Part shown: positions 10,712 through 64,000 of the stretch, piece after piece | Position numbering within the stretch: the stretch's first letter is position 1 | How the letters are laid out: the number at the start of each line of letters is the position of its first letter | IMG/VR virus record: IMGVR_UViG_3300009515_000001 | Strand: one strand, 5' to 3' | Origin: a virus | Lineage: Duplodnaviria > Heunggongvirae > Uroviricota > Caudoviricetes | Length of the DNA stretch: 64,000 nucleotides | The notes under the pieces: generated by a model | The model's input: the letters and a program-made list of their open reading frames with translations, nothing else | Database searches by the model: none | Told to the model about the DNA's origin: nothing | Translations under genes and position numbers: made by a program

Positions 10712-10725
10712 TTCTTTTAAATAAG
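10712..10725 (+). promoter_or_regulatory. TTCTTTTAAATAAG promoter box upstream of ATG 10748
   Basis: Exact motif copy 23 nt before the start codon. Confidence 0.5.
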
Positions 10726-12842: not shown

Positions 12843-12857
12843 TTCCTTTTAAATAAG
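12843..12857 (+). promoter_or_regulatory. TTCCTTTTAAATAAG promoter-box variant; GGAGGTG SD follows before ATG 12877
   Basis: One-mismatch copy of the recurring box. Confidence 0.45.
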
Positions 12858-17561: not shown

Positions 17562-17744
17562 ATGTTAGGTAAAGCAGGAAAGTTCAATAATTCAAGTATT
17601 TTTACAGCACCTGGTTTAACAAAAGCTGATAAAATTATAACTAAAAGATTAAAGAAAAAAAATATCAAATCAACAAGAAAGGGATTTTTAACAGATGAAG
17701 AGTTTGATAGATTCAGTAATAAATTATTCAGGAGAGAAATTTAA
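17562..17744 (+). CDS. small basic protein
   Basis: ORF track. Confidence 0.35.
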   Translation: MLGKAGKFNNSSIFTAPGLTKADKIITKRLKKKNIKSTRKGFLTDEEFDRFSNKLFRREI

Positions 17745-24504: not shown

Positions 24505-25427
24505 AGATTCTATCATTATACTGTGGAGCTGGCGGATTAGATCAAGGGTTAAAGCAAGCTGGATTAAAAACAACACTTGCAATAGATTACGTTGAAGATT
24601 GTTGCAAGACAATAAAACTGAATCACCCCGATTGCGAAGTGATCTGTGGTAAGGTTTCAGACTATAAGGAATCTTTATCAAACTTTGATGTTATCGTTGG
24701 CGGTCCACCATGTCCTGAATTTTCAAATGCAAAAACAAACAAAACATTTGATCCAACAGAAGTAAATCATTTTTGGGATATAGTAGATAAGATAAAACCA
24801 AAACATCATTTGATGGAAAACGTTCCAGGTGTCATTAAGGTTTGTAAAAGACGTAACATGCTTTTAAATTGTGCCAACTACGGAACACCTCAAACTAGAA
24901 TAAGGCGGTTCTTTACAAACCTTCCAGCACCGGTTGAAACTCATTCTGAATTTCCGTCAAAAAAATTATTTGAGGGAGAAACAAAAAAATGGGTTTCAGT
25001 AAAGGATGCTTTAGGTATCGAGGGAACAATAGAAGATCGAAAGACTAGCTTCGGAGAAGGATTAAGAAAGTACAATGTAGAAAACCCATCAATAACATTG
25101 TTGGCTGATTCAAGATTATGGATCACACCAACAGGATTTAAGAAAAAAAACGAGAAGATGATCTCAAGATCCATAGATGAACCAGCACAAACGATCTTGG
25201 TTGCAGGATCATTCATGGTAACAGACAAACCACTTCACTCGGAAAAATATATCAAATACAAAAATGAAAACTACCAAAGTCGGAAGCTTACAAACGAAGA
25301 ACTGAAAATATTACAGGGATTCCCAAAGGAATACAAGTTTGTCGGTAATATTCAAAGTATAAAGCGGCAGATCGGAAACGCTGTTCCGTCACAGATAATA
25401 GAATCCTTTTTCAGACAAATAGCATGA
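24501..25427 (+). CDS. DNA (cytosine-5)-methyltransferase
   Basis: Motif I LYCGAGG, IV GGPPCPEFS, VI ENVPG, VIII QTRIRRFF, X GNAVP. Confidence 0.8.
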   Translation: MKILSLYCGAGGLDQGLKQAGLKTTLAIDYVEDCCKTIKLNHPDCEVICGKVSDYKESLSNFDVIVGGPPCPEFSNAKTNKTFDPTEVNHFWDIVDKIKPKHHLMENVPGVIKVCKRRNMLLNCANYGTPQTRIRRFFTNLPAPVETHSEFPSKKLFEGETKKWVSVKDALGIEGTIEDRKTSFGEGLRKYNVENPSITLLADSRLWITPTGFKKKNEKMISRSIDEPAQTILVAGSFMVTDKPLHSEKYIKYKNENYQSRKLTNEELKILQGFPKEYKFVGNIQSIKRQIGNAVPSQIIESFFRQIA

Positions 25428-25919: not shown

Positions 25920-26120
25920 TTGAGTGAATACTGTCCTATTTGTAATGAAAGACTTGCAAACTCGGATCATGTTATAAGGTGGATTCACGATATTATCAAA
26001 CATAGAAACTATTGGAAAGGTCAGACAGACGTTATGACAAAGAATCAGTTAAACGAAGTTCTATTTGAGATCATTGACTATTTTCATAAAAGAGAAAAGG
26101 ATGGAGTTGGAAGGATTTGA
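25920..26120 (+). CDS. small C2H2-like zinc-finger protein; 3' end overlaps tRNA on opposite strand
   Basis: CPICNERLANSDHVIRWIHDIIKH. Confidence 0.4.
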   Translation: MSEYCPICNERLANSDHVIRWIHDIIKHRNYWKGQTDVMTKNQLNEVLFEIIDYFHKREKDGVGRI

Positions 26121-26176
26121 ACCTTCGACCTCTAGCTCCCAAAGCTAGCTGGCTATCCAGACTACCGCACAACTCC
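26102..26176 (-). tRNA. tRNA-Pro (anticodon UGG)
   Basis: Minus-strand GGAGTTG acceptor stem pairs with CAACTCC. Anticodon stem CTAGC/GCTAG with loop TTTGGGA. T-arm GAAGG-TTCAAAT-CCTTC; D-loop AGTCTGGATA. D-stem has a C10-A25 mismatch and CCA is not encoded. Confidence 0.8.
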
Positions 26177-29807: not shown

Positions 29808-29821
29808 TTCTTTTAAATAAC
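29808..29821 (+). promoter_or_regulatory. TTCTTTTAAATAAC promoter box; implies true start ATG 29845 for the next gene
   Basis: One-mismatch copy of the recurring box. Confidence 0.45.
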
Positions 29822-31804: not shown

Positions 31805-32992
31805 ATGTATAATGATGGGGTAATTGAAGAAGGGGGTTATGAAGAACGATCTGTTGTTTCCACTCCAGTAGGTTTAGTTGTACTGTTTTTAGGCGGTCTG
31901 ATCATTTTTACATTAATCACACTAGTATTAAAAAACCCAGTATGGACATGGTTCGACAACTTGATGATCCACGAAATTTTTGTAGATACAACAACTATGG
32001 ATCTAACAGACGAACAGGTAGAGGGGATTACCAATATGGCATTTGATTGGAATTGGATCTGGCAGGGATTTTTAATTTTAGTAGTAGTTATTATCATAGC
32101 AAAAGGCATTAGGATCATTAGACCAACTCATAGGGCGGCTGTTGAAACACTTGGGAAATATACTGGTTTTAAAAAATCAGGAATTACATACGTTCTGCCT
32201 TTCATTCAAAAGCTTTACGATGTAAATATCACAGATCAGTTGGTAGATGTTCAACGCCAAGAGGTAATCACAAAGGATAATCTTAACTGTAAAGTGGATG
32301 CACAGGTGTATTACAAGGTAGGAGAAACCGAATCTGAACTAAAAAAGGCATTATACAAGGTAAACAGCTATGAAAGACAGATTGTTCAGCTAGCTAGAAC
32401 CACTCTAAGAAACGTAATCGGTGATAATTTATTCAAAGATGTAAACTCTCAAAGGGGAAAACTTAACGTAGAAGTCTTTGAAACTATGGAAAAGGAAACA
32501 AGAGATTGGGGAATTAATCTGGTTCGTGTTGAATTAAAGGAAATTGAACCACCAGCAGACGTACAACAAACAATGAACATGGTTATCAAAGCAGAAAATG
32601 AAAAACAGTCAGCAATTGACTTTGCAAATGCAACAGAAACAAAGGCAGACGGTCAAAGAAGAGCAGAAATTAAGCTAGCAGAAGGAGAAAAACAATCACA
32701 AATACTAAAAGCACAAGGAGAAGCACAAGCTATAATTGCAGTTGCAGAAGCAAAAGCAAAACAAATTGAGTTGGTAAATAGTGCTGCAGATAAATATTTC
32801 AAAGGAAACGCACAGACTTTGGAGAAATTACAGGTTACAAGGGATTCACTTCAAATTAATACCAAGTATATTATGACAAAAGAAGGAATTACACCTACAT
32901 TGGTTGTTAATGAATCAGGTGAAAGTATAATTCCAATTAAAAAAGAAAGCCAAAAAAGTCAAATACATGAAGCTTATGAGGATATTCAGTAA
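31805..32992 (+). CDS. SPFH/band-7 (stomatin/prohibitin-like) membrane protein
   Basis: N-terminal TM, SPFH core (IRIIRPTHRAAVETLGKY...QVYYKV...), A/E/K coiled-coil tail. Confidence 0.75.
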   Translation: MYNDGVIEEGGYEERSVVSTPVGLVVLFLGGLIIFTLITLVLKNPVWTWFDNLMIHEIFVDTTTMDLTDEQVEGITNMAFDWNWIWQGFLILVVVIIIAKGIRIIRPTHRAAVETLGKYTGFKKSGITYVLPFIQKLYDVNITDQLVDVQRQEVITKDNLNCKVDAQVYYKVGETESELKKALYKVNSYERQIVQLARTTLRNVIGDNLFKDVNSQRGKLNVEVFETMEKETRDWGINLVRVELKEIEPPADVQQTMNMVIKAENEKQSAIDFANATETKADGQRRAEIKLAEGEKQSQILKAQGEAQAIIAVAEAKAKQIELVNSAADKYFKGNAQTLEKLQVTRDSLQINTKYIMTKEGITPTLVVNESGESIIPIKKESQKSQIHEAYEDIQ

Positions 32993-40030: not shown

Positions 40031-40759
40031 ATGAAAGACACAGCTATTGAATGGGCAGAAAACACAATCAACTTCTACATGGGATGTACTAAGGTTTCAC
40101 CAGGTTGTACTAATTGTTACATGTATAGGCTTATGCCAAGATTCGGTAGAGATCCAAATGTAGTTAATAAAATGAATTTTAAAAATATAGAAAAGAATTT
40201 AAAAAAATGGAATCCATCAAGAATTTTTGTAAACTCAATGTCTGATACTTTTCACAAAGATATTACAGATCAGGAGATAAATCAAATGTTTTCACTTATG
40301 GAACAGTATGATAAACATCAATACCTTGTATTAACAAAAAGAATTCAGCGAGCTTACGAATATTTCAAAGGAATTAAAATACCAGATAACATTTGGATAG
40401 GAACATCAGTTGAAAGTGAAAAATATGCAGATAGGATAGATCATTTAAGAAAAATAAACGCAAAGATTCACTTTGTAAGTTTTGAACCACTTCTAAATGA
40501 GATGATTAATTTCAATTTAGACAATATCCAATGGGTAATAGTTGGAGGTGAATCAGATCCTAAACCAAGAGGAATGAGATCTGAATGGGTTGATAAGATT
40601 TTTGACAAGTGTAGAGAAAAACAAATTCCATTTTTCTTCAAACAGTGGGGTGGAAAATCAAAATGCAAATGTCATAAAGCTTGGGGATGCAGAATTTACA
40701 AAGAAAAAACTTGGGATCAAATTCCAACTGATTTATTTTTTATTGAGGTAAACCAGTAA
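40031..40759 (+). CDS. phage Gp37/Gp68 family protein (DUF5131-like)
   Basis: N-terminal IEWAENT...GCTKVSPGCTNCYM matches the family's IEWT...GC...GC.nCY signature. Confidence 0.55.
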   Translation: MKDTAIEWAENTINFYMGCTKVSPGCTNCYMYRLMPRFGRDPNVVNKMNFKNIEKNLKKWNPSRIFVNSMSDTFHKDITDQEINQMFSLMEQYDKHQYLVLTKRIQRAYEYFKGIKIPDNIWIGTSVESEKYADRIDHLRKINAKIHFVSFEPLLNEMINFNLDNIQWVIVGGESDPKPRGMRSEWVDKIFDKCREKQIPFFFKQWGGKSKCKCHKAWGCRIYKEKTWDQIPTDLFFIEVNQ

Positions 40760-43790: not shown

Positions 43791-44005
43791 GTGAAATAGT
43801 TGGTAATGAATCAGTCTTAATTCCAATCTGGAAACAATGTCCAAAATGCAAGTCAGTTGATATTACAGTTCAAGAAACTGGACATTATTCTGAAACTTTC
43901 AAGTATGGTGTTTTGATTGGAAGAAACGTAGAGTTTGCAAAGCTGGGACCTACAATAACAACTTGCGAAAAATGTGGACATGAAGAAGAGGAAGATGTGA
44001 ATTGA
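43787..44005 (+). CDS. zinc-ribbon protein
   Basis: CPKCKS...CEKCGH. Confidence 0.45.
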   Translation: MSEIVGNESVLIPIWKQCPKCKSVDITVQETGHYSETFKYGVLIGRNVEFAKLGPTITTCEKCGHEEEEDVN

Positions 44006-44236
44006 GGTTTGAAGTTTTGAAAAGAATATGGGAAATGCTGGATGAGGGTTATTCAGGAAAAGAGATCGCCAATTTTTTTTATATAAATCCAGATATTATC
44101 GATTCGATAATTGAATTAAAAAAAGCAAAGGTAAACTTGGATGTGTACGCATGAGGTGTCACGATTGCAACTCAAATCATTTGTTAATCAATCCAGATAA
44201 AACAATAACCTGTCGTCAATGTGGTGGAAATGAGGC

Positions 44237-47154: not shown

Positions 47155-48912
47155 ATGATAATTGGGCATGACTTTGATAATAAAGCGATAAATATCGATG
47201 TTCAGCGTGTTGTGGAAGGAAGGTTGCTTTTCCAAGCCAACAGTGGCGGTGGTAAAAGCTACGCATTAAGAAAGTTTTGTGAGGTCACTCATGGTAAGGT
47301 TCAGCAGATCATTTTAGATGTAGAAGGTGAGTTTGCTTCACTTAGGGAGAAATTTGACTATATTTTAGTTGGAAAAGAAGGTGACATACCAGTTAACCTA
47401 AGAGCTTCAGAACTTTTGGCAAAAAGATTGTTAGAACTTAATACTTCAGCAATTATAGATCTTTATGAGCTAAAACACCATGAAAGGAAAAGATTTGTTA
47501 GAAATTTCCTAGATTCATTAATTAATTCACCAAAAGAGCTTTGGCACCCTTGTTTAGTTATAATTGATGAATGTCACATCTTTGCACCTGAAAAGACAAG
47601 TGGAGAATCAGAATCTCTTGATTCTGTAAAAGATTTAGCTACAAGGGGAAGAAAACGAGGATTTGCATTGGTAGCTGCAACACAAAGGCTTTCAAAGTTG
47701 AACAAAGACGTAGTTGCAGAACTAAATACAAAACTAATCGGTAGAAGCTCTCTTGATGTGGATATGAAACGTGCGGCATTTGAGCTTGGTTTTACCGATA
47801 AAAAAGATGTTTTGTCACTTAGAAATATGAACAAGGGAGAATTTTATGCTTTTGGACCTGCATTAACCAATGAAGTAACAAAAATAATGGTTGATAATGT
47901 TTTGACAACACACCCTGAAGCTGGTAAAACATACCAGAAAACCAAATCAGCGCCTGCTGAAAAAGTAAAAAGAGTGCTTGAAAAACTCAAAGATCTACCT
48001 GTTGAAGCAGAAGAAGAACTAAAGACACATGAAGATCTAAAGAGAAAAATTATCGAGTTAAAACGTGAAATTACAACTCTAAAACGAGCAAAACCCACTC
48101 AAAAAATAGATGAAAATCTGTTAAAAGAGCATTATGAAAGAGGCTATAAAGATGCTACAAAGCAAAGAAATGATAAATTACCAAGTATGATTAGGAGTAT
48201 TAACAGTGAATTAAAGGCAATCAACACTTTAAAACGACAAACTGAAATAACTTTAAAGAAATCTAACGAGAATCTTAGCTACATTCTTGGTTCAATGGAA
48301 TCATTAAAGCAAGTTTCAACACCTAAACAAAGAAAAATTAATTTAAAACCAGCACCATTAGGTTATGTAGGTAGTGTAGTTGCAACACAAGTTGGAATTC
48401 CACTTATTAAACAAACACCAGAACTAGAATCAGAATCAGAAATTGGAGCAGGACCAATAAAGATACTAAACGCAATAGCACAGTTTGATCCAAATCCAAT
48501 CTCTATTTATCAAACAGGAACTTTTGCTGGATATTCAGTTGGTTCAGGAACATGGACTAACTATATTTCAATACTAAAAAAGAATTATTTGATTAACAAA
48601 ACAGGTAAAATGCTAAGTTTAACTGAACAGGGAAGGGAAATGACAAAAGATATTGAACCACTTCCAACAGATCCAGATTCATTACTTCACATTTGGAAGA
48701 ATAAACTTCCAGCTGGACCAGCCAAGATCTTACAAGTTTTGTTTGATAATTATCCAGATTCAATAGAAAGGACTGAACTTGCAGATAGATCGGGATATTC
48801 TTTTGGTTCAGGAACATGGACAAATTACATATCCATTCTTAGAAAGAATCACCTAATAGAAGATGATTCGGGAAATTATAAGGTATCAAAAACTTTGTTT
48901 CCACTTCAATAA
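47155..48912 (+). CDS. HerA/FtsK-superfamily (DUF87-like) P-loop ATPase with two C-terminal repeated winged-helix-like modules
   Basis: IGHD...RLLFQANSGGGKSY (Walker A), VIIDECH (Walker B), ATQRLSKL. Repeats GYSVGSGTWTNYISILKKNYLI and GYSFGSGTWTNYISILRKNHLI. Confidence 0.7.
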   Translation: MIIGHDFDNKAINIDVQRVVEGRLLFQANSGGGKSYALRKFCEVTHGKVQQIILDVEGEFASLREKFDYILVGKEGDIPVNLRASELLAKRLLELNTSAIIDLYELKHHERKRFVRNFLDSLINSPKELWHPCLVIIDECHIFAPEKTSGESESLDSVKDLATRGRKRGFALVAATQRLSKLNKDVVAELNTKLIGRSSLDVDMKRAAFELGFTDKKDVLSLRNMNKGEFYAFGPALTNEVTKIMVDNVLTTHPEAGKTYQKTKSAPAEKVKRVLEKLKDLPVEAEEELKTHEDLKRKIIELKREITTLKRAKPTQKIDENLLKEHYERGYKDATKQRNDKLPSMIRSINSELKAINTLKRQTEITLKKSNENLSYILGSMESLKQVSTPKQRKINLKPAPLGYVGSVVATQVGIPLIKQTPELESESEIGAGPIKILNAIAQFDPNPISIYQTGTFAGYSVGSGTWTNYISILKKNYLINKTGKMLSLTEQGREMTKDIEPLPTDPDSLLHIWKNKLPAGPAKILQVLFDNYPDSIERTELADRSGYSFGSGTWTNYISILRKNHLIEDDSGNYKVSKTLFPLQ

Positions 48913-48946: not shown

Positions 48947-51076
48947 TTGAGGCTGGAAAATCGTACAATTTTGATCGGAGATGTGATGGAAAAGATTAAA
49001 GAGATTCCAGACAGTACAGTTGATTGCGTTATAAGTAGCCCACCTTACTGGGCACTGCGAGATTACGGAACAGGAAAGTGGGTTGGTGGTAACAACCCTA
49101 ACTGTCAGCATGAAGCTATACGTCACAAAACAAGAGATGAAAGAAAATCAAATGCTTGGATGGAAGAAAAATTAACTGAAGGAACATACGGTGATGAATT
49201 CAAGTGGAAAGCAAGAAGATGCCCTGATTGTAACGCTGAATATACGGACTTGCAGTGGGGTTTAGAACCTGATTTCAAAGATTATTTAAAAAAATTAGAT
49301 GATTTAATGGAACAATTACGCAGGGTTCTAAAGGATACAGGTTCAATCTGGATTAATTTAGGTGACACTTACTCTTCTTCTGGTAGTGGAACAAACTCAA
49401 AAACCACTGGATTGCATGGAAAAGATTGCAAATGCCAGACATGTGTAGCAACTCATGGAACTTCTTATTATAGAAAGGGCTTAAACTATATTCAAACCAA
49501 AAGCAGGATAGGAATTCCTGAAAGATTTTACATAAATTGTATTGATAAGGGATTCATAGCACGTAATCATATTCCCTGGATTAAACCAAACGCCATGCCA
49601 AGTTCAGTTCAAGATCGTTTTACAAACAAATGGGAATCAGTTTTCTTCTTTGCAAAGAAGCAAAAGTATTACTTTAACCTAGACGCTGTTCGGGAAAAGA
49701 CTATCACTGAATTAAAGCCACCAAAAGAAAAAACAAAAACAAAACTGAAACCATTATTTGATAATACTGAAAACGAACCAGATCGAAAGATGTTAGATGT
49801 TCCTGGTCAACCAACTCATTCAATTCACAAGAGAAGAGAACAAGGATTATCAGATTATGAAGAAAAGGGAAATCATCAACCAGAAGGAAGATCACATTTT
49901 GGAACAGGATCAGACATCAAACAAAACATGTTAAAGGCAAGATTCAAACAAAGAGAACTAAACAAGGCACAAGATCAATACACACAAAGAATCCTAGAAG
50001 CTAGGGCAGAAGGAGCTGGACATGACAATCCACTTGGAAATCCAATGGGTAAGAATCCTGGCGATGTGTTTGTAGAACAAAATGATGATTCAAGATGGCG
50101 TAAACACTTTGATGAAAATGGAAATTGTTACGGTTGTGGGAAACATTATACAAAACATACAGTAAAAAATAGAGCACAGGGATCTGAAAATAGGGATCAA
50201 AGACAACAAGATGGGTACTGCTGGTGTAACCCTCAAGGAAAAAATCCTGGAGATGTAATCTACGACAAATCAAAACCTTATTCAGTTGTCGAAAGATTTG
50301 GAGAAGTAATTTACAGAAAACTTCCAGCTCACGATGCTTTGAGAGAATATCTAAACGAATCACGAAACAAAGAGGGAATTACAATAGATTACATTGAAGA
50401 GTATTTTGGCAACCAAGCAGGACATCATTGGTTTGAAAAAAACGGATCTTACCCAAGTGTTTCAGACTGGCTAAAACTGAAAAAACTGCTAAAATTAGAC
50501 AATACTTATGATGACCAATTACTAACAGAATACACAAAGCCAGCAGAAAAGCAGAATGATCCAAGAGGAAAGAATCCTGGTGACGTATTCATAATAAACA
50601 CAAAACCCTTCACATCAGCCCATTTTGCAACTTTCAACCTTGATCTTCCACTAAAAATACTGAAATGTTCATGCCCACAAAATGTATGCAAGAAATGTGG
50701 AAAGCCAAGAGAAGCAATATGGAAGAGGGCTTCCTTGCAGGATACAACAGATGAGTGTGAGTTAAAGATTGAAAAATCTCAATACAAACTTGGAAAATCA
50801 TCAGCATTACGATTGAGTGGCGGTGGAGATACGTATAACGCATGGAAAGCTGAAAACCCTGACGAGTTAGTTGGTTACACTGATTGTGGTTGTCATCAAG
50901 GGTATGAACCAGGTGTTGTACTAGATCCTTTCTTCGGTTCTGGAACTGTTGGAGTTGCTGCAGAAAAATTAGGATTAAACTGGATAGGCATTGAAATCAA
51001 TCCGCAATATGTTTCAGAAATTATAACAAAAAGACTTGATAAACACAAAAACGAAAGGATGACTGAATTCTTTTGA
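48947..51076 (+). CDS. beta-class (SPPY) N4C/N6A DNA methyltransferase, unusually long (709 aa), with triplicated GKNPGDV motif and a Cys-cluster insertion
   Basis: ILIGDVMEKIKEIPDSTVDCVISSPPYWALRDY (motif IV); HFATFNLDLP (HPAxFP-like); VLDPFFGSGTVG (motif I); three copies of G-K-N-P-G-D-V. Confidence 0.8.
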   Translation: MRLENRTILIGDVMEKIKEIPDSTVDCVISSPPYWALRDYGTGKWVGGNNPNCQHEAIRHKTRDERKSNAWMEEKLTEGTYGDEFKWKARRCPDCNAEYTDLQWGLEPDFKDYLKKLDDLMEQLRRVLKDTGSIWINLGDTYSSSGSGTNSKTTGLHGKDCKCQTCVATHGTSYYRKGLNYIQTKSRIGIPERFYINCIDKGFIARNHIPWIKPNAMPSSVQDRFTNKWESVFFFAKKQKYYFNLDAVREKTITELKPPKEKTKTKLKPLFDNTENEPDRKMLDVPGQPTHSIHKRREQGLSDYEEKGNHQPEGRSHFGTGSDIKQNMLKARFKQRELNKAQDQYTQRILEARAEGAGHDNPLGNPMGKNPGDVFVEQNDDSRWRKHFDENGNCYGCGKHYTKHTVKNRAQGSENRDQRQQDGYCWCNPQGKNPGDVIYDKSKPYSVVERFGEVIYRKLPAHDALREYLNESRNKEGITIDYIEEYFGNQAGHHWFEKNGSYPSVSDWLKLKKLLKLDNTYDDQLLTEYTKPAEKQNDPRGKNPGDVFIINTKPFTSAHFATFNLDLPLKILKCSCPQNVCKKCGKPREAIWKRASLQDTTDECELKIEKSQYKLGKSSALRLSGGGDTYNAWKAENPDELVGYTDCGCHQGYEPGVVLDPFFGSGTVGVAAEKLGLNWIGIEINPQYVSEIITKRLDKHKNERMTEFF

Positions 51077-51333: not shown

Positions 51334-51550
51334 TTTTAGAAACAAATGTAAAATTTGCACAAATCCTGATGAAGATCTTTCAGTACTGTGGAAATTTACA
51401 GATAAAGATATTAGAAATCTTTGCGTGAACTGTAAAGTAAAATTTTTAGAAATACAGCCATATCTTGAAGAACAACGAGAGAGGTTAATAAAAGCATTGG
51501 AAACAGAAATACAAAAAAGAAATATGGGGATTGGACCACGAGATGACTAA
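51275..51550 (+). CDS. small zinc-ribbon protein (start probably internal)
   Basis: CKICTN...CVNCK. Confidence 0.4.
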   Translation: MRKESLKNQNVWGNVLVNINFRNKCKICTNPDEDLSVLWKFTDKDIRNLCVNCKVKFLEIQPYLEEQRERLIKALETEIQKRNMGIGPRDD

Positions 51551-51624
51551 AAATTTAGATGAACTTTGTATTTTTTCAGACTTTGAAAAAGAATGGATAA
51601 GAGATCAAATGGAGAGCAAAAAAA

Positions 51625-52050
51625 TTGAAGAGTGATCAATTATACAATCTAATTACAAAAATTGTTGTATTTACACTTGTAATTGGAATTACAACGTTTC
51701 TTTTTTTGGATTGGTGGTTATTTCCAATATCAGAAGCTTTCAACTATACCTATGACTTTCTAAATGATTCTAACTACATGGAATTATTTGCAGAACAAAA
51801 GGCTACCCAAATCAACGAAGAACTGCTATCTGATATTGAAAGTGGTATTGAAATTGATGACGAGTATGCACGTAATTTCTGGATAAATGCAAGAGAAGAA
51901 GCTGGTAACTCAATTCATGGATTTTTTTTGTTTCTGTTTGCTCCCTGGATTGCGACAATTTGTGTAGGTTATTTTGCTTATAAATTCAGTTGGAAATCTT
52001 CTGAAAAGATCAATAAGTTAATTCTAAAATACATGGGTGATAAAAAATGA
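51625..52050 (+). CDS. membrane protein
   Basis: ORF track. Confidence 0.45.
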   Translation: MKSDQLYNLITKIVVFTLVIGITTFLFLDWWLFPISEAFNYTYDFLNDSNYMELFAEQKATQINEELLSDIESGIEIDDEYARNFWINAREEAGNSIHGFFLFLFAPWIATICVGYFAYKFSWKSSEKINKLILKYMGDKK

Positions 52051-52149
52051 GTTTTGCAGGTGCAATAACAGCGGCTTTACTTCACATGGAAAAAATGAAA
52101 AAACTTCGTAAGAAGAAATTAGAATATCAGATCCACAAGACAATAACAC

Positions 52150-52893
52150 ATGGAGTGTAAACTAATGTCAAAAACTGAAAAAGCTGTGCTAAGAAAAGTA
52201 ATTGAAGCTTACACAAGAGATGTGGGAAGGGGAGTTTGCAGGTTAGATTATGACACTATGGACATGCTAGATATTGCAACAGGTGATCCGTTAAAACTAA
52301 AAAACAAGGATACGGTCACTGGTGCAAAGGCATTACCACTTTATCCATCAGACGAAGGAAAGGATATTGTAAGAATTGATGGTTTGTTAAGACAGAATCT
52401 TCATGTTCAAGTAGGACTTCCAATAGAAATTACAAAGACAGAAGCTTCACCAGCCCAAGAATTAACACTATTCCCACTTCGAGAGATCCCACCATTAGAA
52501 GAAAAATACATAGCTGATGCTTTGGAAAGTGTTCCTGTAACCAAAAATGATATTGTCAACGTTCCTTATTTCGGGGGAAGATTAGAGTTTAAAGTTAAAA
52601 AAACAATACCAAACGGTATAGTGGTTATTACACAAGTGACTAAAGTAAACCTAATCATTGAAGATCTTCCTGACGAGTTGGATGATTATGAAAAATATAT
52701 TACAAGAGAGAGAAATAAATTATTACGTGATGTTAAAAAACAGATCAAAGATTCATTAGTAAAGAAAGATTTTGCAAGGATACAAGAACTTTCATCATTT
52801 TATGAAAAAAAGATTGATGATTTAGAATCAACATGGAGGATTGCAAGACACATCTTACAGAAAAAAGAAGATAGTGATAATAATGTGTCCTAA
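52150..52893 (+). CDS. stand-alone CDC48/VCP N-terminal-domain-like protein (double-psi barrel) without AAA modules
   Basis: VIEAYTRDVGRGVCRLDYDTMDMLDIATGDPLKL...GKDIVRIDGLLRQNLHVQVGLPIEI matches the CDC48_N pattern. Confidence 0.55.
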   Translation: MECKLMSKTEKAVLRKVIEAYTRDVGRGVCRLDYDTMDMLDIATGDPLKLKNKDTVTGAKALPLYPSDEGKDIVRIDGLLRQNLHVQVGLPIEITKTEASPAQELTLFPLREIPPLEEKYIADALESVPVTKNDIVNVPYFGGRLEFKVKKTIPNGIVVITQVTKVNLIIEDLPDELDDYEKYITRERNKLLRDVKKQIKDSLVKKDFARIQELSSFYEKKIDDLESTWRIARHILQKKEDSDNNVS

Positions 52894-53196
52894 CTGCGTT
52901 TGGAATCATAATAACAAAATCGATATAGAAAAGTCTGGTCACTGCAATTGCAACTGTCATCGCATGGGCGGTTTTGGTTTAAAATGACTGAAAATATTAC
53001 AAAAAATGTTTGTAATGATTTCCCATTTTGTGATTGGGAATGTTTAGAATGGAAAAAGAATGATGGAGTATTAACTAATGTCAAAAACTGAAAAAGCTAT
53101 GACCACATCCCTTATTTTTTGTTATTTCTGTATGGAGTTCAAATTATTAACCTATGATGAAATTGAAGAACATTTCTTTAATCACTGGTGTAAAGT

Positions 53197-53379
53197 ATGA
53201 ATCATTACCTTAGAATACCGACCTGGACATGCCCCAACTGTAATTCAGAAAAAGAGATACCATTGTTCTGTAAAGAGTGCGATCTTTGGATTTGTAGTGC
53301 ATGTTGGCTTGACCACGATGTTAAAATGATGAAACAAAAAGGCTTGTTAGTTTGTCCTTGTGGAGAAAAACATGGATGA
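53197..53379 (+). CDS. zinc-finger protein
   Basis: CPNCNS...CKECDLWICSAC...CPCGEKHG. Confidence 0.4.
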   Translation: MNHYLRIPTWTCPNCNSEKEIPLFCKECDLWICSACWLDHDVKMMKQKGLLVCPCGEKHG

Positions 53380-53653
53380 ACGTCAGAAGAATAACGCAAA
53401 AGCAATCATAGCTTCAGTAGTAACCATTGTATTTTTGTATGGTTTGGCGTTTGTATTTCTAGTTCCAATACACGAACATCAGACACAAAAATTAATTGAA
53501 GAGAACTGTCCAGATGGTTTGGAAAATTGCGGATTAATAATTGATCCCTCACCAATATGGATGCTTTTGGGTATGCCAGCAGTAATTGTTTACTTTGTGA
53601 CATTCAAACACTTGGAAAATAAGCGGTTCAAAACATGGAGTTCGTATAGATAA
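53360..53653 (+). CDS. membrane protein
   Basis: ORF track. Confidence 0.4.
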   Translation: MEKNMDERQKNNAKAIIASVVTIVFLYGLAFVFLVPIHEHQTQKLIEENCPDGLENCGLIIDPSPIWMLLGMPAVIVYFVTFKHLENKRFKTWSSYR

Positions 53654-53859
53654 TGGGTATCGAACTTAATACAGATTCTTCAGGTTCAGCTGCAGGTTCA
53701 CTAAACGAAGGATTTGGTGGCTTTAGCGGTGGTTTGAGAAGCATTTTGGATTTCTTTTACAACATTGATCAGGCATTTGATGGTATGGTCACATTCCTAA
53801 AGGGAACGTTTCTTGGTTGGGAGAACATTGAATTTCTATTTGGAGTGTTTTTGTCTTGA
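53653..53859 (+). CDS. small Gly/Ser/Phe-rich protein
   Basis: ORF track. Confidence 0.35.
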   Translation: MGIELNTDSSGSAAGSLNEGFGGFSGGLRSILDFFYNIDQAFDGMVTFLKGTFLGWENIEFLFGVFLS

Positions 53860-54071
53860 AGGAACACCAAAAAATTACGCAGGAAGATATGGATCATCTT
53901 GTAGAAATTGCAGATAATGATCCAAAATTCAAAAAAACATTAAGAGAGTTGGATCAGCTTGCAAATGCAAGGGGATTAAATCTAAACGAGGTAATCGAAA
54001 CAGCATGTGCATTATACTTGGTAAAGCAAAAAGCAAAGGAGTGGAATAATGCCAGAAGAAAAACCATATAA
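53856..54071 (+). CDS. small helical protein
   Basis: ORF track. Confidence 0.4.
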   Translation: MKEHQKITQEDMDHLVEIADNDPKFKKTLRELDQLANARGLNLNEVIETACALYLVKQKAKEWNNARRKTI

Positions 54072-54419
54072 GAAATTAAGTTCATGTCACTATCGTGTAT
54101 CTAAAAAGAAGATCTGTGGTTCTAAAGATTTGTGCAGACATCCAGGCTGGCCTACTCTATGCAAAAAACATTGTGAGATGATGTAAGAGGCGATGAAGAT
54201 CTTTGGTTGAATGTCCTAGATGTAACACTAAAATGGAAAAATATGTAGCATGTGAACTTAGGTGTCCTAATTGCAAGGGATTAGTTGATTGTAGTGATTT
54301 ACTATGAATTCAATTTTACACTGTCCGATCTGTCAAGAATCTTTTATTTTACAAAAATATCTAAAAGCTCACATCACATCAAAACATAAAGACGACAAAT
54401 TTTTACAAGATAATTAGTC

Positions 54420-55127: not shown

Positions 55128-55409
55128 ATGAAAGTATCGGTAGAACTTGGTGAAGATGTAATTGAAATAAAAAAAGCAAAGGTATGTTGTATTAAGGAAT
55201 GTAAAGAATATGCGACTGAAAATTTATGTAGTTTAGGTATGTGTAAAAAACATCATAATCAAATGAGGGATTAAAAATGGCACACATGACATGTAAGATG
55301 TGTTTGGATGGTAAACACGATAACTGTTCTCTTGATAAAGCCTGTTATTGTAATCAGTTAAAACACCCAGCAAACATCTTAGAAATCTTAGCAAAGGAGA
55401 TCTAATCAC

Positions 55410-57448: not shown

Positions 57449-57462
57449 TTCTTTTAAATAAG
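57449..57462 (+). promoter_or_regulatory. TTCTTTTAAATAAG promoter box with no ORF downstream; precedes hairpin-rich 57487-57563 segment
   Basis: Exact motif copy. Confidence 0.45.
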
Positions 57463-57556: not shown

Positions 57557-57570
57557 ATCTTTTAAATAAC
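57557..57570 (+). promoter_or_regulatory. ATCTTTTAAATAAC promoter-box variant upstream of 57575/57590 start
   Basis: Motif variant. Confidence 0.4.
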
Positions 57571-58228: not shown

Positions 58229-58242
58229 TTCTTTTAAATAAG
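58229..58242 (+). promoter_or_regulatory. TTCTTTTAAATAAG promoter box 20 nt upstream of ATG 58262
   Basis: Exact motif copy. Confidence 0.5.
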
Positions 58243-58390: not shown

Positions 58391-58404
58391 TTCTTTTAAA
58401 TAAG
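58391..58404 (+). promoter_or_regulatory. TTCTTTTAAATAAG promoter box upstream of ATG 58426
   Basis: Exact motif copy. Confidence 0.5.
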
Positions 58405-58521: not shown

Positions 58522-58784
58522 AAGATATTGTGTGTGAACACAAATCAAATCTGAATTGCCCCTGCTGTGCCAAGAAATTCTGCTATACATGTATCTATAA
58601 GCATATCAAAATTCACTCTCAAAGGCTAGAGAGTATTGGAGTTGAGTTGAAACATGTTTCAAAACCCCCCACTCATTCTGCTAAGATCTCACCTAAAACA
58701 ATCAAAGCCCCCAAAATTCCTTCATTGAATATTTCAAATCCTGTACTAAACAGTTCACCTAAACCCAAAAACACTTTTCTTTAA
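58515..58784 (+). CDS. zinc-finger plus Ser/Pro-rich protein
   Basis: CEHKSNLNCPCC...CYTC. Confidence 0.45.
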   Translation: MIQDIVCEHKSNLNCPCCAKKFCYTCIYKHIKIHSQRLESIGVELKHVSKPPTHSAKISPKTIKAPKIPSLNISNPVLNSSPKPKNTFL

Positions 58785-58917
58785 AATAAGTCAACAACAA
58801 ACTATCTTTGGGCTGGATTGGAAAAAGTAGCCAATGTCCTATCTCGATGTACGTGTACTGTCATCTTCTAGTATATCCAATCCCCAATCCAGTTCCTTTA
58901 TAATTATTATCAATATA

Positions 58918-59641: not shown

Positions 59642-59959
59642 TTGTCTGCTAGTTCAGCATTGATCGCCACCGCTTTCAGCCAGTTAAGAAACGCATACAT
59701 ATCCTGCATAATAAACAAGGCCGATCCATTCAACGCCACCACAATGATAATGAATATGGTTGCTATGTTGCCACCAGATTCTAGACCAGAACTGAAAGAC
59801 CTTGAAGATGAACCTAGTCGTAAAGAATTTCTAGATGATGTCGATGAAGATCTATACATGGCAGAAGCTTGGGCTTACGTTAGGAAGCTAGGGTATCTTG
59901 TAGAAGAATGTGTAGCAAAGTATGTGAGTAATATTCAATCGAGAAGGAGTATGGCATAA
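59642..59959 (+). CDS. small acidic protein; TTG start after GGGGAGGTG SD
   Basis: ORF abuts next gene; SD 13 nt upstream. Confidence 0.4.
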   Translation: MSASSALIATAFSQLRNAYISCIINKADPFNATTMIMNMVAMLPPDSRPELKDLEDEPSRKEFLDDVDEDLYMAEAWAYVRKLGYLVEECVAKYVSNIQSRRSMA

Positions 59960-61263
59960 TGGCATTAGAAGAAGTGGGTGAAGAGATAGTTGAACAGGAT
60001 ATTGAAGCTAAGATACAAGCTAAGGCAGTTGAAAAGAAGAAGGCTTTCACTGGAGTAAAGACAACTCTCTTTAAAGATCCTCGTGATGGTCAACGCTATC
60101 CAATACCTGTATCGATGTCACCAATGCCAACGGTAGATCGTATCCTAACCTATTCAGCAAGGACAGGTTTCTGTGGTATCTTGTGCATTGGAATGTCAGG
60201 CACTGGAAAGAGTACACTTGCCAGATTCTTGGTCCATCAACTGCACCAAAAGAAGAACTTTAACATTCACTGGTATGAGAGAGATGACATTCAAAGGCTG
60301 GACAAGATCATAGCCAGCTTGCAGAAGGGGTTGGACCATATCATAGTGATGGATGACGCTTCATTCAGTTTAGAACAACTGAAACGTGAGGACATTACCA
60401 AGATTGCACAGAAGCTTACCTACGTTAGACACGATGTTAGAGGACAGGTGATAGTGATAATGAATATACATTATTCTAAAGCAATTTCCAGGTTCTTTAG
60501 GAACGTTCCATTCGCTTTCCTCACTTCAATCACACAAGAAGAAGTACATACATTCCAAGATGTTTGGCCTCATGGTAGGTGGAAGTTCAAAGACTTTGCA
60601 TGGTATTACCAACAGATGATGTTCACAGATAAGTGGACATTCGATGTTGATAGGTGGGAGAACAAGACCATGACGTATAGAACAGATGATCCTTTCAGAC
60701 TTGGACTAGCTATGGAAGGGAACTACATACACTTCATAGTGTATTTAAAAGATGGTTGTACTTTATGCGATGCACAATTTGATATAAAGAAGATAGTAAA
60801 TAGTAAAGAGTTGGTTGATTACTTTGTCAAGTCATACGGATTACCTAGAGCAAGAAGTATACTGAACCTCTATGCCTTTACTAAGCATGGACAGAAGGCA
60901 TTAGATTCAAACAGACAGGCTATCTGGAATAGCATAGCAGACTTTGATAAGAACAATAAGATTAACTGGGTGAATGTTGTGCAGGAATTACGTAAGACAT
61001 TGAAGAGTAGAAGAAGAACCTATGTAAAGAAGTCTGTACTAAAAGAGAACGCAGAACAACTTGAAGATCTACCCGAAGGTGATCCTGAATTGGAACGTGT
61101 CAAGACAGAACAGGAGTTAGAACTACAAGAACAACTAGCAGACTTGGAAGAGAACCAAGACAAAGTAATACCTATGGGATATGATCCTGATACATCAAAC
61201 CCTAATCAAATGCCATACGGTGAGGAAGAAATAGACAGGCAACTTGATCAAGATAACCAATGA
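59959..61263 (+). CDS. P-loop NTPase (SF3-helicase-like or A32/FtsK-like ATPase); candidate replication or packaging protein
   Basis: Walker A GMSGTGKST, Walker B HIIVMDDAS, downstream VIVIMNIHY (motif C-like Asn). Confidence 0.6.
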   Translation: MALEEVGEEIVEQDIEAKIQAKAVEKKKAFTGVKTTLFKDPRDGQRYPIPVSMSPMPTVDRILTYSARTGFCGILCIGMSGTGKSTLARFLVHQLHQKKNFNIHWYERDDIQRLDKIIASLQKGLDHIIVMDDASFSLEQLKREDITKIAQKLTYVRHDVRGQVIVIMNIHYSKAISRFFRNVPFAFLTSITQEEVHTFQDVWPHGRWKFKDFAWYYQQMMFTDKWTFDVDRWENKTMTYRTDDPFRLGLAMEGNYIHFIVYLKDGCTLCDAQFDIKKIVNSKELVDYFVKSYGLPRARSILNLYAFTKHGQKALDSNRQAIWNSIADFDKNNKINWVNVVQELRKTLKSRRRTYVKKSVLKENAEQLEDLPEGDPELERVKTEQELELQEQLADLEENQDKVIPMGYDPDTSNPNQMPYGEEEIDRQLDQDNQ

Positions 61264-61274
61264 TCTATATTCAG

Positions 61275-61397
61275 TTAGTGATACCAAGTAGTGATAATAA
61301 TTTATCATTTTTATTATCACTTAGATCTATTTTCAGTTAGTGATAATGTAGACCACTAGTGATAACAAGTAGTGATAACCTGGAAGGTAGTGATACC
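61275..61397. repeat. cluster of 6 direct plus 1 inverted TAGTGATA(A/C) iteron-like repeats, ending in palindrome CCTGGCAACCAGG
   Basis: Read directly from sequence. Confidence 0.75.
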
Positions 61398-61487
61398 TGG
61401 CAACCAGGCGCACAATTATTTTTGTATTTTTCTGACAACAATTTTTCAGTTACGTGCCTGTAATAATTTTCAGTTATAATTTTTTAG

Positions 61488-61554
61488 TGGTTAACATATT
61501 GTTGGTTAACATATTGTTGGTTAACATATTGTTGGTTAACATATTGTTGGTTAA
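61488..61554. repeat. 4.5 tandem copies of 15-mer GGTTAACATATTGTT
   Basis: Read directly from sequence. Confidence 0.9.
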
Positions 61555-61799
61555 CTACCTAAGATTAATCTTAATTCAATCTTAGAATTTATACCTAGAT
61601 TTATTTAATAAATAAAATACCTTGATCTTTAATCTTAAATTAAGATCTGAAATTTCAGATAATCATTTTATATTAAAATCTGAAAAGCTGAAATTTTTTA
61701 AAGTCTGTAATTTACGCCTAAGCATTTTTAGATATACCCTTTTTGTATGTTCATTTAAACACACAAGTGATTTATTAATATACGTACATATTTAAAATT

Positions 61800-63026
61800 A
61801 TGAATGAGGATACCACAAGATCCAACAATAACCCAACTAATGAAAATTCATCTAATGAAAATTCAGTTTCTGAAAATTCAGATCACAAATACAATCCATC
61901 AAAAGATCACTTAGAAATTTGTGAACCATGCAGAATAGAAAAGAAAAGAAAAAATGATCTATACTATGCAAACAATAAGGATAAAGTTTTAGCTAAAAGA
62001 AAAGCTGAACGTGAACAAAAATTATCTAAGTTGAATAAAGCAATTAACGATCCAAATAAAACAACTTTAACAAAAGACGATCTACATTTAGCAAACACGA
62101 TCCCGATCCAAGAAATAGATCCACAAAACTATATGTTAAAACAAACAACTAAGTTTATTTTTCCAAAAGGATCTGAAAATCTTTTGAAAAAATATTCAAT
62201 GAAAAAAGTATCTAAAGGATTAATTTTATTTGGTCATGCTGGAAACGGTAAAACCGAGCTTCCAAAACAATGGTCTATTAAAAATAAAGTGCCTAATGTT
62301 TTTCTAAGTTGTCATAACGATATTAGATCAACCGATCTTCTTGGATCTTTTTCACTTAAAGAAGGTTCAAGCGTTTTTGTATTAGGAAAAATAATTGAAG
62401 CTATCGAGATCGCAAACAAACATAGTTCTAAACAATGTGTTTTAGTTCTTGATGAGATTAACACAATGGATAATAATGTTCAAAAGATCTTAAACACTAA
62501 TTTAGATTTCAGATCTGGAATTAATATTCCATTGGTTAACAAACAATATAGATTAAACGATGAATCAAAAATAATCGTTGTAGCTACAATGAACCCTAGT
62601 TCTTATAGTGGCACATATCCATTAAACTTAGAACTAAATTCAAGGTTCGACTTTAAAGAAATTAAAACCATGCCAGATAAATTAATTAAAGATCTTTTAA
62701 AGTCAAAAAACATCGATGAAAAAACAATCGAATCTTTATTGATTACACAAAAAGAATTATTGAAAGCTTTTGAAGCTGATAAGATACAACAACCGATCGA
62801 TCCAAGAGGATTATTAAAATTTGCAGAAGATTATAATCTAAACAAAACTGAATTTAAAATGGATCATTCAGAAGCTTTGCAAGAAGCTTTAGAATTAACT
62901 TTAGTTGGTAGATACCTAGACAATAAAGAAGATCTCAAATTTGTAAATGAAATTATAGAATCTAATTTCAGCTTTGAAGATCCAGAAGTAAACGAACAAA
63001 CAGAAAAAGAAGATAACGAACAATAG
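61800..63026 (+). CDS. AAA_5-type (MoxR/McrB-like) ATPase
   Basis: Walker A GHAGNGKTE, Walker B LVLDEINTMD, sensor VVATMNP, arginine finger SRF. Confidence 0.7.
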   Translation: MNEDTTRSNNNPTNENSSNENSVSENSDHKYNPSKDHLEICEPCRIEKKRKNDLYYANNKDKVLAKRKAEREQKLSKLNKAINDPNKTTLTKDDLHLANTIPIQEIDPQNYMLKQTTKFIFPKGSENLLKKYSMKKVSKGLILFGHAGNGKTELPKQWSIKNKVPNVFLSCHNDIRSTDLLGSFSLKEGSSVFVLGKIIEAIEIANKHSSKQCVLVLDEINTMDNNVQKILNTNLDFRSGINIPLVNKQYRLNDESKIIVVATMNPSSYSGTYPLNLELNSRFDFKEIKTMPDKLIKDLLKSKNIDEKTIESLLITQKELLKAFEADKIQQPIDPRGLLKFAEDYNLNKTEFKMDHSEALQEALELTLVGRYLDNKEDLKFVNEIIESNFSFEDPEVNEQTEKEDNEQ

Positions 63027-63038
63027 GAGATCTAAAAA

Positions 63039-64000
63039 TTGTCTATACAAAATTCCCAAAAAATCGATCCTTCTTCTGATGATTCATTAAAAGAATTTTC
63101 AGAAGAAGATCGAAAATTTGTTTTAGATTTTATTAGTATGTTTTCAGCAATTAAAAATAAACCATTAAAAATATTTTTCAATAATAATTCAGGTAAGCAT
63201 TTTATTACTTATAATAAATATGAAAAAGAATATCAGATCTATACAGATCCTTATGATGAAAAAATTTATTGGAAAACTGCGATCGAGCATGAAGTAAGCC
63301 ATTTATTATTTGATACAAAATTCGATTCATTCAAAAGATATGCTAATGAAATAATTTCTAATTGTCCTTATGAATTAAGATCAATTAGTTTCAAAAGTAT
63401 TCACACGATCTATAATGTGTTTGAAGATATGAGGATCGAATCATGGTTCGGAAAATACAAACAAGGATTTAGAAAAAGAATAATTCAAACTAGAAAATCA
63501 TTAGGAAAAGATCCGCAAATAGTAAAAGGCGATCCAGATAATCCAATTTCAGCTTTATTATATTCTAGATTTTTTAGAAACGATTTAGTAAGATTATCTA
63601 ATTTTAAAGTGTGTGAAGATTACATAAACAAATCTGAATTTATTAACCCTAAAGGATCAATTCTTTTAGTTAAAGATTTTTACGATAAAGTTTTTCTACC
63701 ATTCTTAAAAGAACAAAAAGAAAAACAAAAGGAAAAAGAAAAACAAAAAGAGAATCAAAAAAATGAAACTGAAAATTCAGATCCAAAAGGAACTGAAAAT
63801 TCAAAAGATGATTCAAATAAAAAACAATCAGAAGATCAAAAAGATAATTCAGACAATGAAGATCCAGAAGATAAAGATCCAGAAGATAAAGATCCAGACT
63901 TTAACGATTTAGATTCTGATGATTCAGATAACGATTTAGATTCTGATGATTCAGATAACGATTTAGATTCTGATGATTCAGATAACGATTTAGATTCTGA
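63039..64000 (+). CDS. partial CDS (runs off window): HExxH-motif protein with Asp/Ser-rich acidic repeat tail; possible metallopeptidase-like partner of the AAA_5 ATPase
   Basis: TTG start 63039; AIEHEVSHLL (HExxH); frame stays open to window end. Confidence 0.5.
   Translation, partial: MSIQNSQKIDPSSDDSLKEFSEEDRKFVLDFISMFSAIKNKPLKIFFNNNSGKHFITYNKYEKEYQIYTDPYDEKIYWKTAIEHEVSHLLFDTKFDSFKRYANEIISNCPYELRSISFKSIHTIYNVFEDMRIESWFGKYKQGFRKRIIQTRKSLGKDPQIVKGDPDNPISALLYSRFFRNDLVRLSNFKVCEDYINKSEFINPKGSILLVKDFYDKVFLPFLKEQKEKQKEKEKQKENQKNETENSDPKGTENSKDDSNKKQSEDQKDNSDNEDPEDKDPEDKDPDFNDLDSDDSDNDLDSDDSDNDLDSDDSDNDLDS
63906..64000. repeat. 3.5 tandem copies of 27-nt GATTTAGATTCTGATGATTCAGATAAC (encodes DLDSDDSDN repeats)
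   Basis: Read directly from sequence. Confidence 0.9.

Follow-up and report, generated by a model that had tools for sequence, protein, structure and literature searches.

A stand-alone Cdc48 N domain with a helical hairpin and a locally copied gene start in a putative virus of ammonia-oxidising archaea

Overview

The DNA considered here is a stretch of 64,000 nucleotides (nt; hereafter the window) from the IMG/VR virus record IMGVR_UViG_3300009515_000001, which, judging from similarity and base composition, we read as a virus or virus-like element of Nitrososphaeria (thaumarchaea; ammonia-oxidising archaea). At 52165-52893, on the plus strand, it carries a gene for a protein of 242 amino acids (aa) that is a complete N domain of the Cdc48/VAT/p97 type without any ATPase and that is maintained by purifying selection. 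The translation initiation region of this gene, comprising the ribosome-binding site, the start codon and seven A-rich codons, is present a second time 913 bases downstream, in a segment specific to this lineage. The explanation favoured here, in which a captured host N domain acts on the host Cdc48 network and the start of its gene was copied locally, is considered moderately likely as a whole.

A complete N domain without ATPase modules

The product of the gene begins MSKTEKAVLRKVIEAYTRDVGRG and is identical to a 242-aa database protein (P0001). A preliminary description of this DNA had delimited the open reading frame (ORF) as 52150-52893; the ORF exists, and its start lies at ATG 52165, because homologues begin with MS(E/I)TKK (MSETKKI or MSITKKI) and the database version has 242 aa. 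The apparent ATG at 52150 is part of an ATGGAGT ribosome-binding (Shine-Dalgarno, SD) site located 9 nt 5' of the true start. In Pfam, the protein matches CDC48_N (PF02359; aa 11-93; 5e-19, 68.7 bits against a cut-off of 35.1) and CDC48_2 (PF02933; aa 112-163; 1.1e-13, 51 bits against a cut-off of 22.4) and yields no AAA domain or anything else. The first match corresponds to the double-psi beta-barrel (DPBB) subdomain (52195-52443, plus strand), which is also indicated by the Thermoplasma VAT-N structure 1cz4 and by structure prediction, and the second to the beta-clam subdomain (52498-52653, plus strand), which is also recovered by Foldseek. The closest solved structures by sequence are 1cz4 (4e-14), archaeal Cdc48 barrels and designed DPBB proteins.

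An AlphaFold2 model built from 13 family members has a mean predicted local distance difference test (pLDDT) score of 87.6, with values of 92-96 in the barrel and approximately 80-89 in the tail. In this model the strands of the N domain extend to residue 163 and are followed by two long helices (residues 170-199 and 203-240), a predicted C-terminal hairpin (52672-52884, plus strand) that stands in place of the ATPase modules. Foldseek aligns the model with the N domain of p97 (3tiw_A; E 1.5e-14, template modelling score 0.87, root-mean-square deviation 2.2 A over 163 columns) and also with VAT-N. The NCBIfam model of the whole ATPase (TIGR01243, CDC48) is matched over profile positions 5-190 of 733, with 106.4 bits against a cut-off of 802.65. 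Both N subdomains of the CDC48 AAA ATPase family are present, whereas the two ATPase modules (D1 and D2) with their Walker motifs are absent and the whole-protein score falls below the cut-off. The protein is therefore a full N domain devoid of ATPase modules and, in functional terms, falls outside the Cdc48 ATPase family. Its sequence, profile matches and predicted fold bear out the preliminary description, which had proposed a stand-alone CDC48-N-like domain lacking any AAA module and ending in a coiled C-terminal tail, and had suggested comparison with CDC48_N by profile or structure.

Truncation at profile position 190 could also be expected of a decaying, functionless fragment of a captured host Cdc48 gene, and many database matches that appear to be stand-alone N domains are in fact truncated gene calls. 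Nevertheless, the ratio of nonsynonymous to synonymous substitution rates (dN/dS) of the gene relative to its homologues on two related contigs, L001 and L002, is 0.11-0.20 at a saturated synonymous divergence (dS) of about 1.4, the reading frame is intact in at least nine loci, the non-AAA tail is conserved, and 41 columns are invariant across 13 family members. The gene is maintained by purifying selection and is functional; this selection signal excludes a dead gene fragment, to which we assign hardly any probability. The protein has no match in PHROGs and none in PADLOC, and on these results a defence or anti-defence reading was dropped.

Host origin and restriction to virus-like contigs

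The best cellular matches of the N domain are the N domains of Cdc48 ATPases of Nitrososphaeria, which are 50-60% identical (approximately 55%) and come from hosts including Nitrosopumilaceae, Nitrososphaeraceae and Nitrosocaldus. Host N domains have 97 columns that are conserved in 90% or more of the sequences, and 57 of these columns are retained by 80% or more of the stand-alone copies. A neighbour-joining tree places the host-linked N domains in a tight cluster of short branches and the stand-alone ones on long branches, with the window protein grouping with P0002-P0008 and P0122. Full-length relatives that include the tail are few (P0002-P0008 and P0012; 235-257 aa, 43-64% identical); P0002-P0008, P0012 and P0122 align over 93-98% of the window protein and hence belong to the same family.

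The hairpin is private to this family. A profile of the tail alone, run against 1.84 billion cluster representatives, gave four true matches, three of them full-length proteins with the tail attached to a Cdc48 N domain and the fourth an 85-aa fragment; outside the family this profile found no hairpin tail, the leftover weak matches being repeats or giant proteins. Other stand-alone forms do exist. The top 120 matches of the N domain include 66 genuine AAA proteins or fragments thereof, 23 proteins with long non-AAA tails of several unrelated, mostly helical types, and 7-8 proteins of approximately 175 aa that end in a CPxCG motif. The last group represents a second architecture, with a CPxCG half-zinc-ribbon end and no helical tail (P0010, P0015, P0029, P0030, P0064 and P0120), encoded at 4480-5007 of locus L003, 9965-10507 of L004 and 8001-8525 of L012; its contexts include two IMG/VR viral contigs and one virus-like contig of 50 kb in the metagenome-assembled genome GCA_025464665.1. 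A further family member (P0041, 331 aa, on a 1.4-kb ENA contig) carries an additional Cys/His-rich N-terminal extension of approximately 95 residues before the Cdc48 N domain and tail, a hint that the N-domain protein may be connected with the small zinc-binding proteins.

The hairpin family is rare and was found only on ORFan-dense virus-like contigs. Those carrying it (L001, 22 kb; L002; L009, 40 kb; L011, 49 kb; and L016) are mostly arrays of genes on one strand, with an occasional methylase, helicase, phosphatase or integrase. In all, nine N-domain loci besides the window have this appearance, ORFan-dense with genes mostly on one strand, and IMG/VR lists three of the nine as viral contigs. 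Outside the closely related trio of the window, L001 and L002, the family shares no conserved neighbouring gene. A search of GTDB genomes for a provirus or host returned no close relatives, and tblastn against 50,697 deposited phage and archaeal-virus genomes detected no stand-alone Cdc48 N domain.

The repeated translation initiation region

The preliminary description had also reported a 25-nt exact direct repeat, extending to about 36 shared positions of 39, and both its coordinates and its identity were reproduced. The 25-mer ACTAATGTCAAAAACTGAAAAAGCT occurs at 52161-52185 and 53074-53098; the exact run is 26 nt long (52160-52185 and 53073-53098), and the extended repeat spans 39 nt with 36 identical positions (52150-52188 and 53063-53101). 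In the whole 64 kb there is no third copy of the 25-mer at up to three mismatches. The repeat is thus a local duplication rather than a dispersed motif, a distinction that had been left to be checked. Chance, a dispersed motif or faulty assembly might be invoked in an A-rich genome with weaker AAAACTGAAAAA-like matches, all the more on a metagenome contig. Two matches arose in none of 100 dinucleotide-preserving shuffles, however, a supposed further member at 57845 is 69% identical and represents noise, and an internal duplication of 39 nt would hardly be something that an assembler invents, so that this alternative is extremely improbable.

The repeat is the translation initiation region of the Cdc48-N gene, consisting of the SD site, a spacer, the ATG and seven A-rich codons. 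Copy 1 (52150-52188, plus strand) contains GGAG at 52152-52155, the TAA stop codon (52158-52160) of an upstream 37-aa ORF, ATG 52165 and codons 1-7 of the gene. Copy 2 (53063-53101, plus strand) contains GGAG at 53065-53068, ATG 53078 and the same seven codons, followed directly by ATG 53099. A 35-aa ORF ends within copy 2, which supplies its nine final codons and its stop codon (DGVLTNVKN*, TGA 53089-53091), and the counterpart of ATG 52150 in copy 2 meets a stop codon after two codons. SD motifs are enriched at the gene starts of this element, GGAG being found at -16 to -5 of 20 of the 104 plus-strand ORFs of the window, compared with 51 of all 1388 ATGs. The heptamer ATGGAGT also precedes the gene at 53653 (at 53637-53652), and GGAG(T/A)-type sites lie 5' of the genes at 54049 and 55410; accordingly, the SD part of the repeat is of a kind often seen in this element, and only the coding part is unique. 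Gene overlaps of the ATGA type occur at 43 of the 104 starts in the window.

The repeat had been interpreted as a possible duplicated promoter and 5' end. The promoter part did not hold, as the element is an SD site, a start codon and seven codons inside a long same-strand gene array, and the region lacks the promoter-like motif TTCTTTTAAATAAG. Across the window, 14 sites match this motif at up to two mismatches, compared with 4.1 expected; five are exact, and most are intergenic. Plus-strand sites lie at 3594-3607, 10712-10725, 12844-12857, 29808-29821, 57449-57462, 57557-57570, 58229-58242, 58391-58404 and 58777-58790, with three to four copies clustered at 57.4-58.8 kb. There is no plus-strand site between 39964 and 56290, where the sole site (49281-49294) is on the minus strand. 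The motif looks like an archaeal promoter of the BRE/TATA type (transcription factor B recognition element and TATA box) belonging to the element. A structured regulatory RNA was rejected, with structure z scores of 0.28 and -0.48 and no Rfam match.

Origin of the second copy in a variable insert

Comparison with the two closest relatives clarifies how the second copy arose. By blastn, window positions 51546-52974 are syntenic with 1099-2523 of L002, and 53230-54186 with 2557-3523. Between these blocks the window has a specific insert of 255 bp (52975-53229, plus strand), at which L002 has 33 bp and L001 a different insert of 574 bp. Since the window and L001 carry different inserts, the interval between the Cdc48-N gene and a downstream B-box gene is a variable hot-spot. 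In both L001 and L002 the Cdc48-N gene occupies the corresponding position and the element occurs once, and in the window 88 nt of the 255-bp insert precede copy 2. The gene is therefore not a unit bounded by the two copies, contrary to the earlier view of a gene bracketed by them. An insertion cassette or transposon bounded by direct repeats, as in a target-site duplication, was rejected on the same observations.

Within the insert, only 53063-53095 matches anything, namely copy 1 and the start of the Cdc48-N gene in L002 (91% over 33 nt). Both copies have GAA as codon 5 (E5) and GCT as codon 7 (A7), whereas L001 and L002 have AAA and ATT or ATC at these codons, so that copy 2, which shares the window-specific states, was copied from the gene of this lineage after its split from L002. 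The copies differ upstream of the start codon at two positions (52157/53070 and 52159/53072), and copy 2 shows the L002 state at both; it follows that copy 1 changed later, a change which created the TAA at 52158-52160, the present stop codon of the 37-aa ORF. As the third difference, codon 8 reads GTG in copy 1 and ATG (53099) in copy 2, the latter probably being the former start of a 40-aa ORF. The repeat is thus a single copying event within the lineage into a newly inserted 255-bp segment, and the part of the earlier interpretation that invoked a duplicated 5' end stands, the lineage-specific substitutions in copy 2 marking it as a local duplication of the gene start.

Either template switching or a tandem duplication with subsequent deletion may have produced the copy. 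A specific version of the second route, in which the whole Cdc48-N gene was duplicated in tandem, the second copy was mostly deleted and seven codons remained fused to the downstream ORF, would fit the direct orientation of the copies (913 bp apart), the exact end of copy 2 at an ATG and the location of the region in an indel hot-spot. Yet there is no trace of a second gene copy beside copy 2, the flanks are unrelated and removal of the 39 nt restores no single reading frame. This version, which is unlikely, would differ from the favoured explanation in path alone, the outcome in both being a transplanted 5' end. An older single gene split by a 39-nt insertion was likewise rejected, as removing the element does not fuse the small ORFs in frame.

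The two copies might instead serve as a working recombination substrate, whose use would delete the Cdc48-N gene, a 34-aa ORF and most of the 35-aa ORF and generate population variants. The 26 nt of exact identity in direct orientation would permit this, and the deletion would leave an intact gene with SD site, MSKTEKA leader and 40-aa reading frame right after the 37-aa ORF. Nonetheless, the homology is very short, selection for switching is without evidence, and a search for the degenerate repeat pattern GGAGTNNNAAYTAATGTCAANAACTRAAAAA in IMG/VR, JGI metagenome contigs and GTDB genomes gave no match, the source contig itself also being absent from the results. Overall, a role as recombination substrate is very unlikely. 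In the favoured single-copying explanation, the element would be a transplanted gene junction (upstream stop, SD site, start codon and A-rich leader) and neither a promoter, a cassette border nor a structured RNA; copy 2 would supply the 35-aa ORF with its nine final codons and stop codon and equip the 40-aa ORF with an SD site, a start codon and the MSKTEKA leader ahead of its former ATG.

Small ORFs flanking the gene

Four small plus-strand ORFs flank the Cdc48-N gene. The 37-aa ORF (MSFAGAITAALLHM..., 52047-52160) lies upstream and is conserved in L002; downstream follow a 34-aa Cys-rich ORF (MCPNCVWNH...CNCNCH, 52883-52987), conserved in L002 and as ORF53 of the Nitrosopumilaceae spindle-shaped virus NYM1, the orphan 35-aa ORF (MTENITKNVCNDFPFCDWECLEWKKNDGVLTNVKN, 52984-53091) and the orphan 40-aa ORF (53078-53200, with the internal ATG 53099). 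The last of these is the second small gene of the preliminary description, which was correct about its MSKTEKA start and had given its coordinates as 53085-53200 rather than 53078-53200. No homologue of the 40-aa ORF was detected among 5.8 billion proteins, and tblastn found no counterpart of either orphan ORF in the fetched loci. The notion that the second gene, being Cys/His-containing, is zinc-finger-like is unproven: it matches no Pfam family at E up to 1, and an AlphaFold2 single-sequence model predicts a helix-loop-helix (helical hairpin; pLDDT 83.6). A C2H2 zinc finger was rejected as a candidate, because the spacing of the Cys and His residues that are present is not classical and the model contains no beta-beta-alpha fold.

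Collinearity with L001 and L002 resumes at 53224-53230, inside a 60-aa gene for a B-box-type zinc finger (53197-53379, plus strand; PF00643, 5.3e-6). Its product has an invariant CSACWLDHDVKMMKQKGLL core and is 74-77% identical in L001 and L002 despite saturated synonymous sites. Homologues are encoded at 11111-11302 of L001, 2527-2706 of L002, 774-1022 of L006 and 5920-6168 of L007. A search for relatives based on the B-box protein recovered two JGI contigs and one IMG/VR contig, none with a Cdc48-N gene nearby.

Proposed function

The gene encodes a captured host Cdc48 N domain, cut off at the N-D1 linker, with a helical hairpin in place of the two ATPase modules. In the proposed mechanism, the protein, devoid of unfolding ability, would act in trans on the host Cdc48 network by occupying the partners or substrates for which the N domain of Cdc48 is the usual docking site, and the hairpin would oligomerise or tether it. 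Two modes can be envisaged. In the first, the protein would be a decoy that titrates host N-domain ligands and thereby blunts turnover dependent on Cdc48 and the proteasome; in the second, it would be a Ufd1-like adaptor that redirects turnover, its N-type fold binding a target and its tail binding something else. As the protein cannot unfold anything on its own yet retains most of the residues conserved in host N domains, action in trans on this network is the most likely mode. The absence of a conserved viral partner gene likewise indicates a host target and, together with the host-like residues, the purifying selection and the restriction to mobile elements, points to that network rather than to a viral ATPase. 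Considered from sequence, a decoy or adaptor role on the host Cdc48 network is therefore the most likely function.

The principal competing function is that of a detachable substrate adaptor, working in trans for an N-domain-less AAA+ protein of the element itself. Candidates are present in the window, namely the genes for a MoxR-type AAA_5 ATPase (61800-63026; 5.2e-15) and for a 434-aa P-loop/AAA/STAND-like NTPase (59959-61263), the latter shared with NYM1; to this extent, the suggestion of the preliminary description to look for AAA+ partners elsewhere in the genome was productive, whereas linkage in other family members was not seen. These genes lie 7-9 kb from the Cdc48-N gene, across the other eight loci no AAA+ gene recurs beside the N-domain gene, and the N domain resembles that of host Cdc48, whose partners are the Cdc48 D1 ring and cofactors and not MoxR-type proteins. 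An adaptor for the element's own ATPase is thus quite unlikely.

Several points weigh against the favoured explanation of a captured N domain acting on the host network and a locally copied gene start. Decoy or adaptor activity is a proposal from sequence and models, and little is known about what binds the N domain of archaeal Cdc48, so that the proposal names no specific partner. Expression of the two orphan ORFs of 40 and 35 aa, for which no homologues were found, may be lacking, in which case copy 2 would be a neutral scar. The assembly across the repeat is taken as given, the source contig not being among the searchable reads and contigs. Finally, no capsid gene was recognised in the window, and the virus could be another kind of mobile element.

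A broader scenario, which we regard with some doubt as a possible extension, is that capture of the host Cdc48 N domain by viruses and other mobile elements of these archaea has occurred repeatedly and has turned it into a free mimic with interchangeable tails (helical hairpins or a CPxCG end), which would blind or redirect the host Cdc48-proteasome pathway. If this were true, the mimic might, for example, shield viral proteins or stall proteasome-dependent steps of the cell cycle, and it would be the first virus-encoded anti-Cdc48 factor in archaea. Cdc48 and the 20S proteasome form the central machine of regulated proteolysis in many archaea, where the ligands of the N domain are largely unknown, and a free N domain kept by a virus under purifying selection, at approximately 55% identity to that of the host, would be a natural bait for N-domain partners and for the study of viral interference. 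It would also add a class of host-mimic genes to the very poorly annotated viruses of ammonia-oxidising archaea, which are important in marine and soil nitrogen cycling. The repeat holds less interest, as a clean and dated case in which a ribosome-binding site, start codon and leader codons were copied to launch a small ORF in a viral hot-spot.

The element around the gene

The window is coded on one strand over its whole length, has a guanine-plus-cytosine (GC) content of 34% and consists almost entirely of ORFans. Recognisable genes include a HerA/FtsK-type ATPase with a winged helix (47155-48912, plus strand), which matches phrog_2666 'terminase large subunit' at 9.8e-19, three DNA methyltransferases (10143-10703, 24501-25427 and 48947-51076), a DUF5131 gene (40031-40759) and an SPFH protein (31805-32992). 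The sole DNA match among the deposited phage and archaeal-virus genomes is that between the 34-aa Cys-rich gene and ORF53 of NYM1; at the protein level, the only further matches to NYM1 are the 434-aa NTPase and a 35-aa ORF at 61372-61479. A single feature was confidently identified on the minus strand, a tRNA-Pro (TGG) at 26102-26176 that could be a viral tRNA or be left over from an integration site, and an Rfam search of the window returned nothing besides tRNA.

Several further repeats were observed. Approximately five head-to-tail copies of the 15-nt unit TAACATATTGTTGGT occupy 61477-61555, in the gap 5' of the MoxR-type gene, and could be iteron-like units marking an origin or operator. 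A perfect 27-nt tandem repeat, TAACGATTTAGATTCTGATGATTCAGA, runs off the end of the window (63902-64000) in its region of lowest GC content (27%); its unit is a multiple of three and may encode an acidic peptide repeat. Repeats of the 21-nt CCACCACCAGTAGTTGAAGAA type at 17978-18085 would encode a Pro-Pro-Pro-Val-Val-Glu-Glu repeat within the ORF at 17744-18409. In the C-terminal part of the HerA/FtsK-like gene, 3' of the winged-helix match, a 57-nt direct repeat (48529-48585 and 48793-48849, 82% identical) indicates an internal duplication. A 31-nt segment encoding G-K-N-P-G-D-V occurs three times (50040-50070, 50229-50259 and 50559-50589) within a long insert of the 709-aa N6/N4 DNA methyltransferase encoded at 48947-51076. 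In addition, two small genes that are not related to each other share a 26-nt repeat (44108-44133 and 55159-55184, 96% identical) encoding IE(L/I)KKAKV, which sits at the 3' end of the gene at 44002-44154 and close to the 5' end of that at 55128-55274; it represents a further short patch common to small ORFs of the element.

Comparison with known systems

The domain itself is textbook material; a stand-alone Cdc48 N domain in archaeal viruses is something that we could not find in the literature, in deposited virus genomes or in PHROGs, and full-text searches of the literature likewise found no description of a viral one. The window protein shares the two-subdomain fold (CDC48_N plus CDC48_2; 1cz4 and 3tiw) and the sequence family of the Cdc48/VAT/p97 N domain. 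In contrast to those ATPases, it has no D1/D2 rings, and so neither hexamerises through them nor unfolds substrates, and it has a private helical hairpin and a location on a virus-like element. CDC48-family ATPases (arCOG01308) have been listed as 'virus/plasmid associated' in a survey of archaeal 'dark matter' (PMC4158269), where they appear as ATPases, whereas the window protein is the N domain alone. Sequences of the Cdc48 family are thus known cargo on mobile elements of archaea.

The UT3 domain of Ufd1, a eukaryotic Cdc48 cofactor, offers a second comparison, as it too combines a Cdc48-N-type fold without ATPase and a C-terminal extension. In Ufd1, the UT3-type fold binds ubiquitin and the tail docks on Cdc48. 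The best matches of the window protein in a library of viral structures are giant-virus homologues of Ufd1 (Hyperionvirus A0A3G5A970, E 3.4e-10) at 13-14% identity, which indicates that ATPase-less proteins of this fold do serve as Cdc48 cofactors. The UFD1 Pfam family is not among the matches of the window protein at E up to 1, and the latter is a recent derivative of the archaeal Cdc48 N domain and not of Ufd1.

Viral or cellular proteins that tune AAA+ proteases provide conceptual parallels. Phage modulators of host AAA+ proteases include Gp53 of SPO1, which acts on ClpC, and PinA of T4 and Gp4.5 of T7, which act on Lon; these are likewise small proteins tuning a host unfoldase or protease, but they are not copies of the ATPase's own domain. 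Mycobacterial ClpC2 and ClpC3 are stand-alone homologues of the ClpC1 N domain that act as decoys. Here the concept is alike, in that a free copy of the unfoldase's own N domain tunes or shields it. In all these cases the unfoldase family and the domain of life differ from those considered here, and the window protein is known from sequence and models.

The repeated element, for its part, resembles the overlapping gene junctions with SD sites (translational coupling) that are common to prokaryotic and viral operons, since it packs an upstream stop, an SD site and a downstream start into approximately 40 nt. Unlike ordinary coupled junctions, this one is present twice in its entirety, along with seven codons, and each copy serves a gene pair unrelated to the other.

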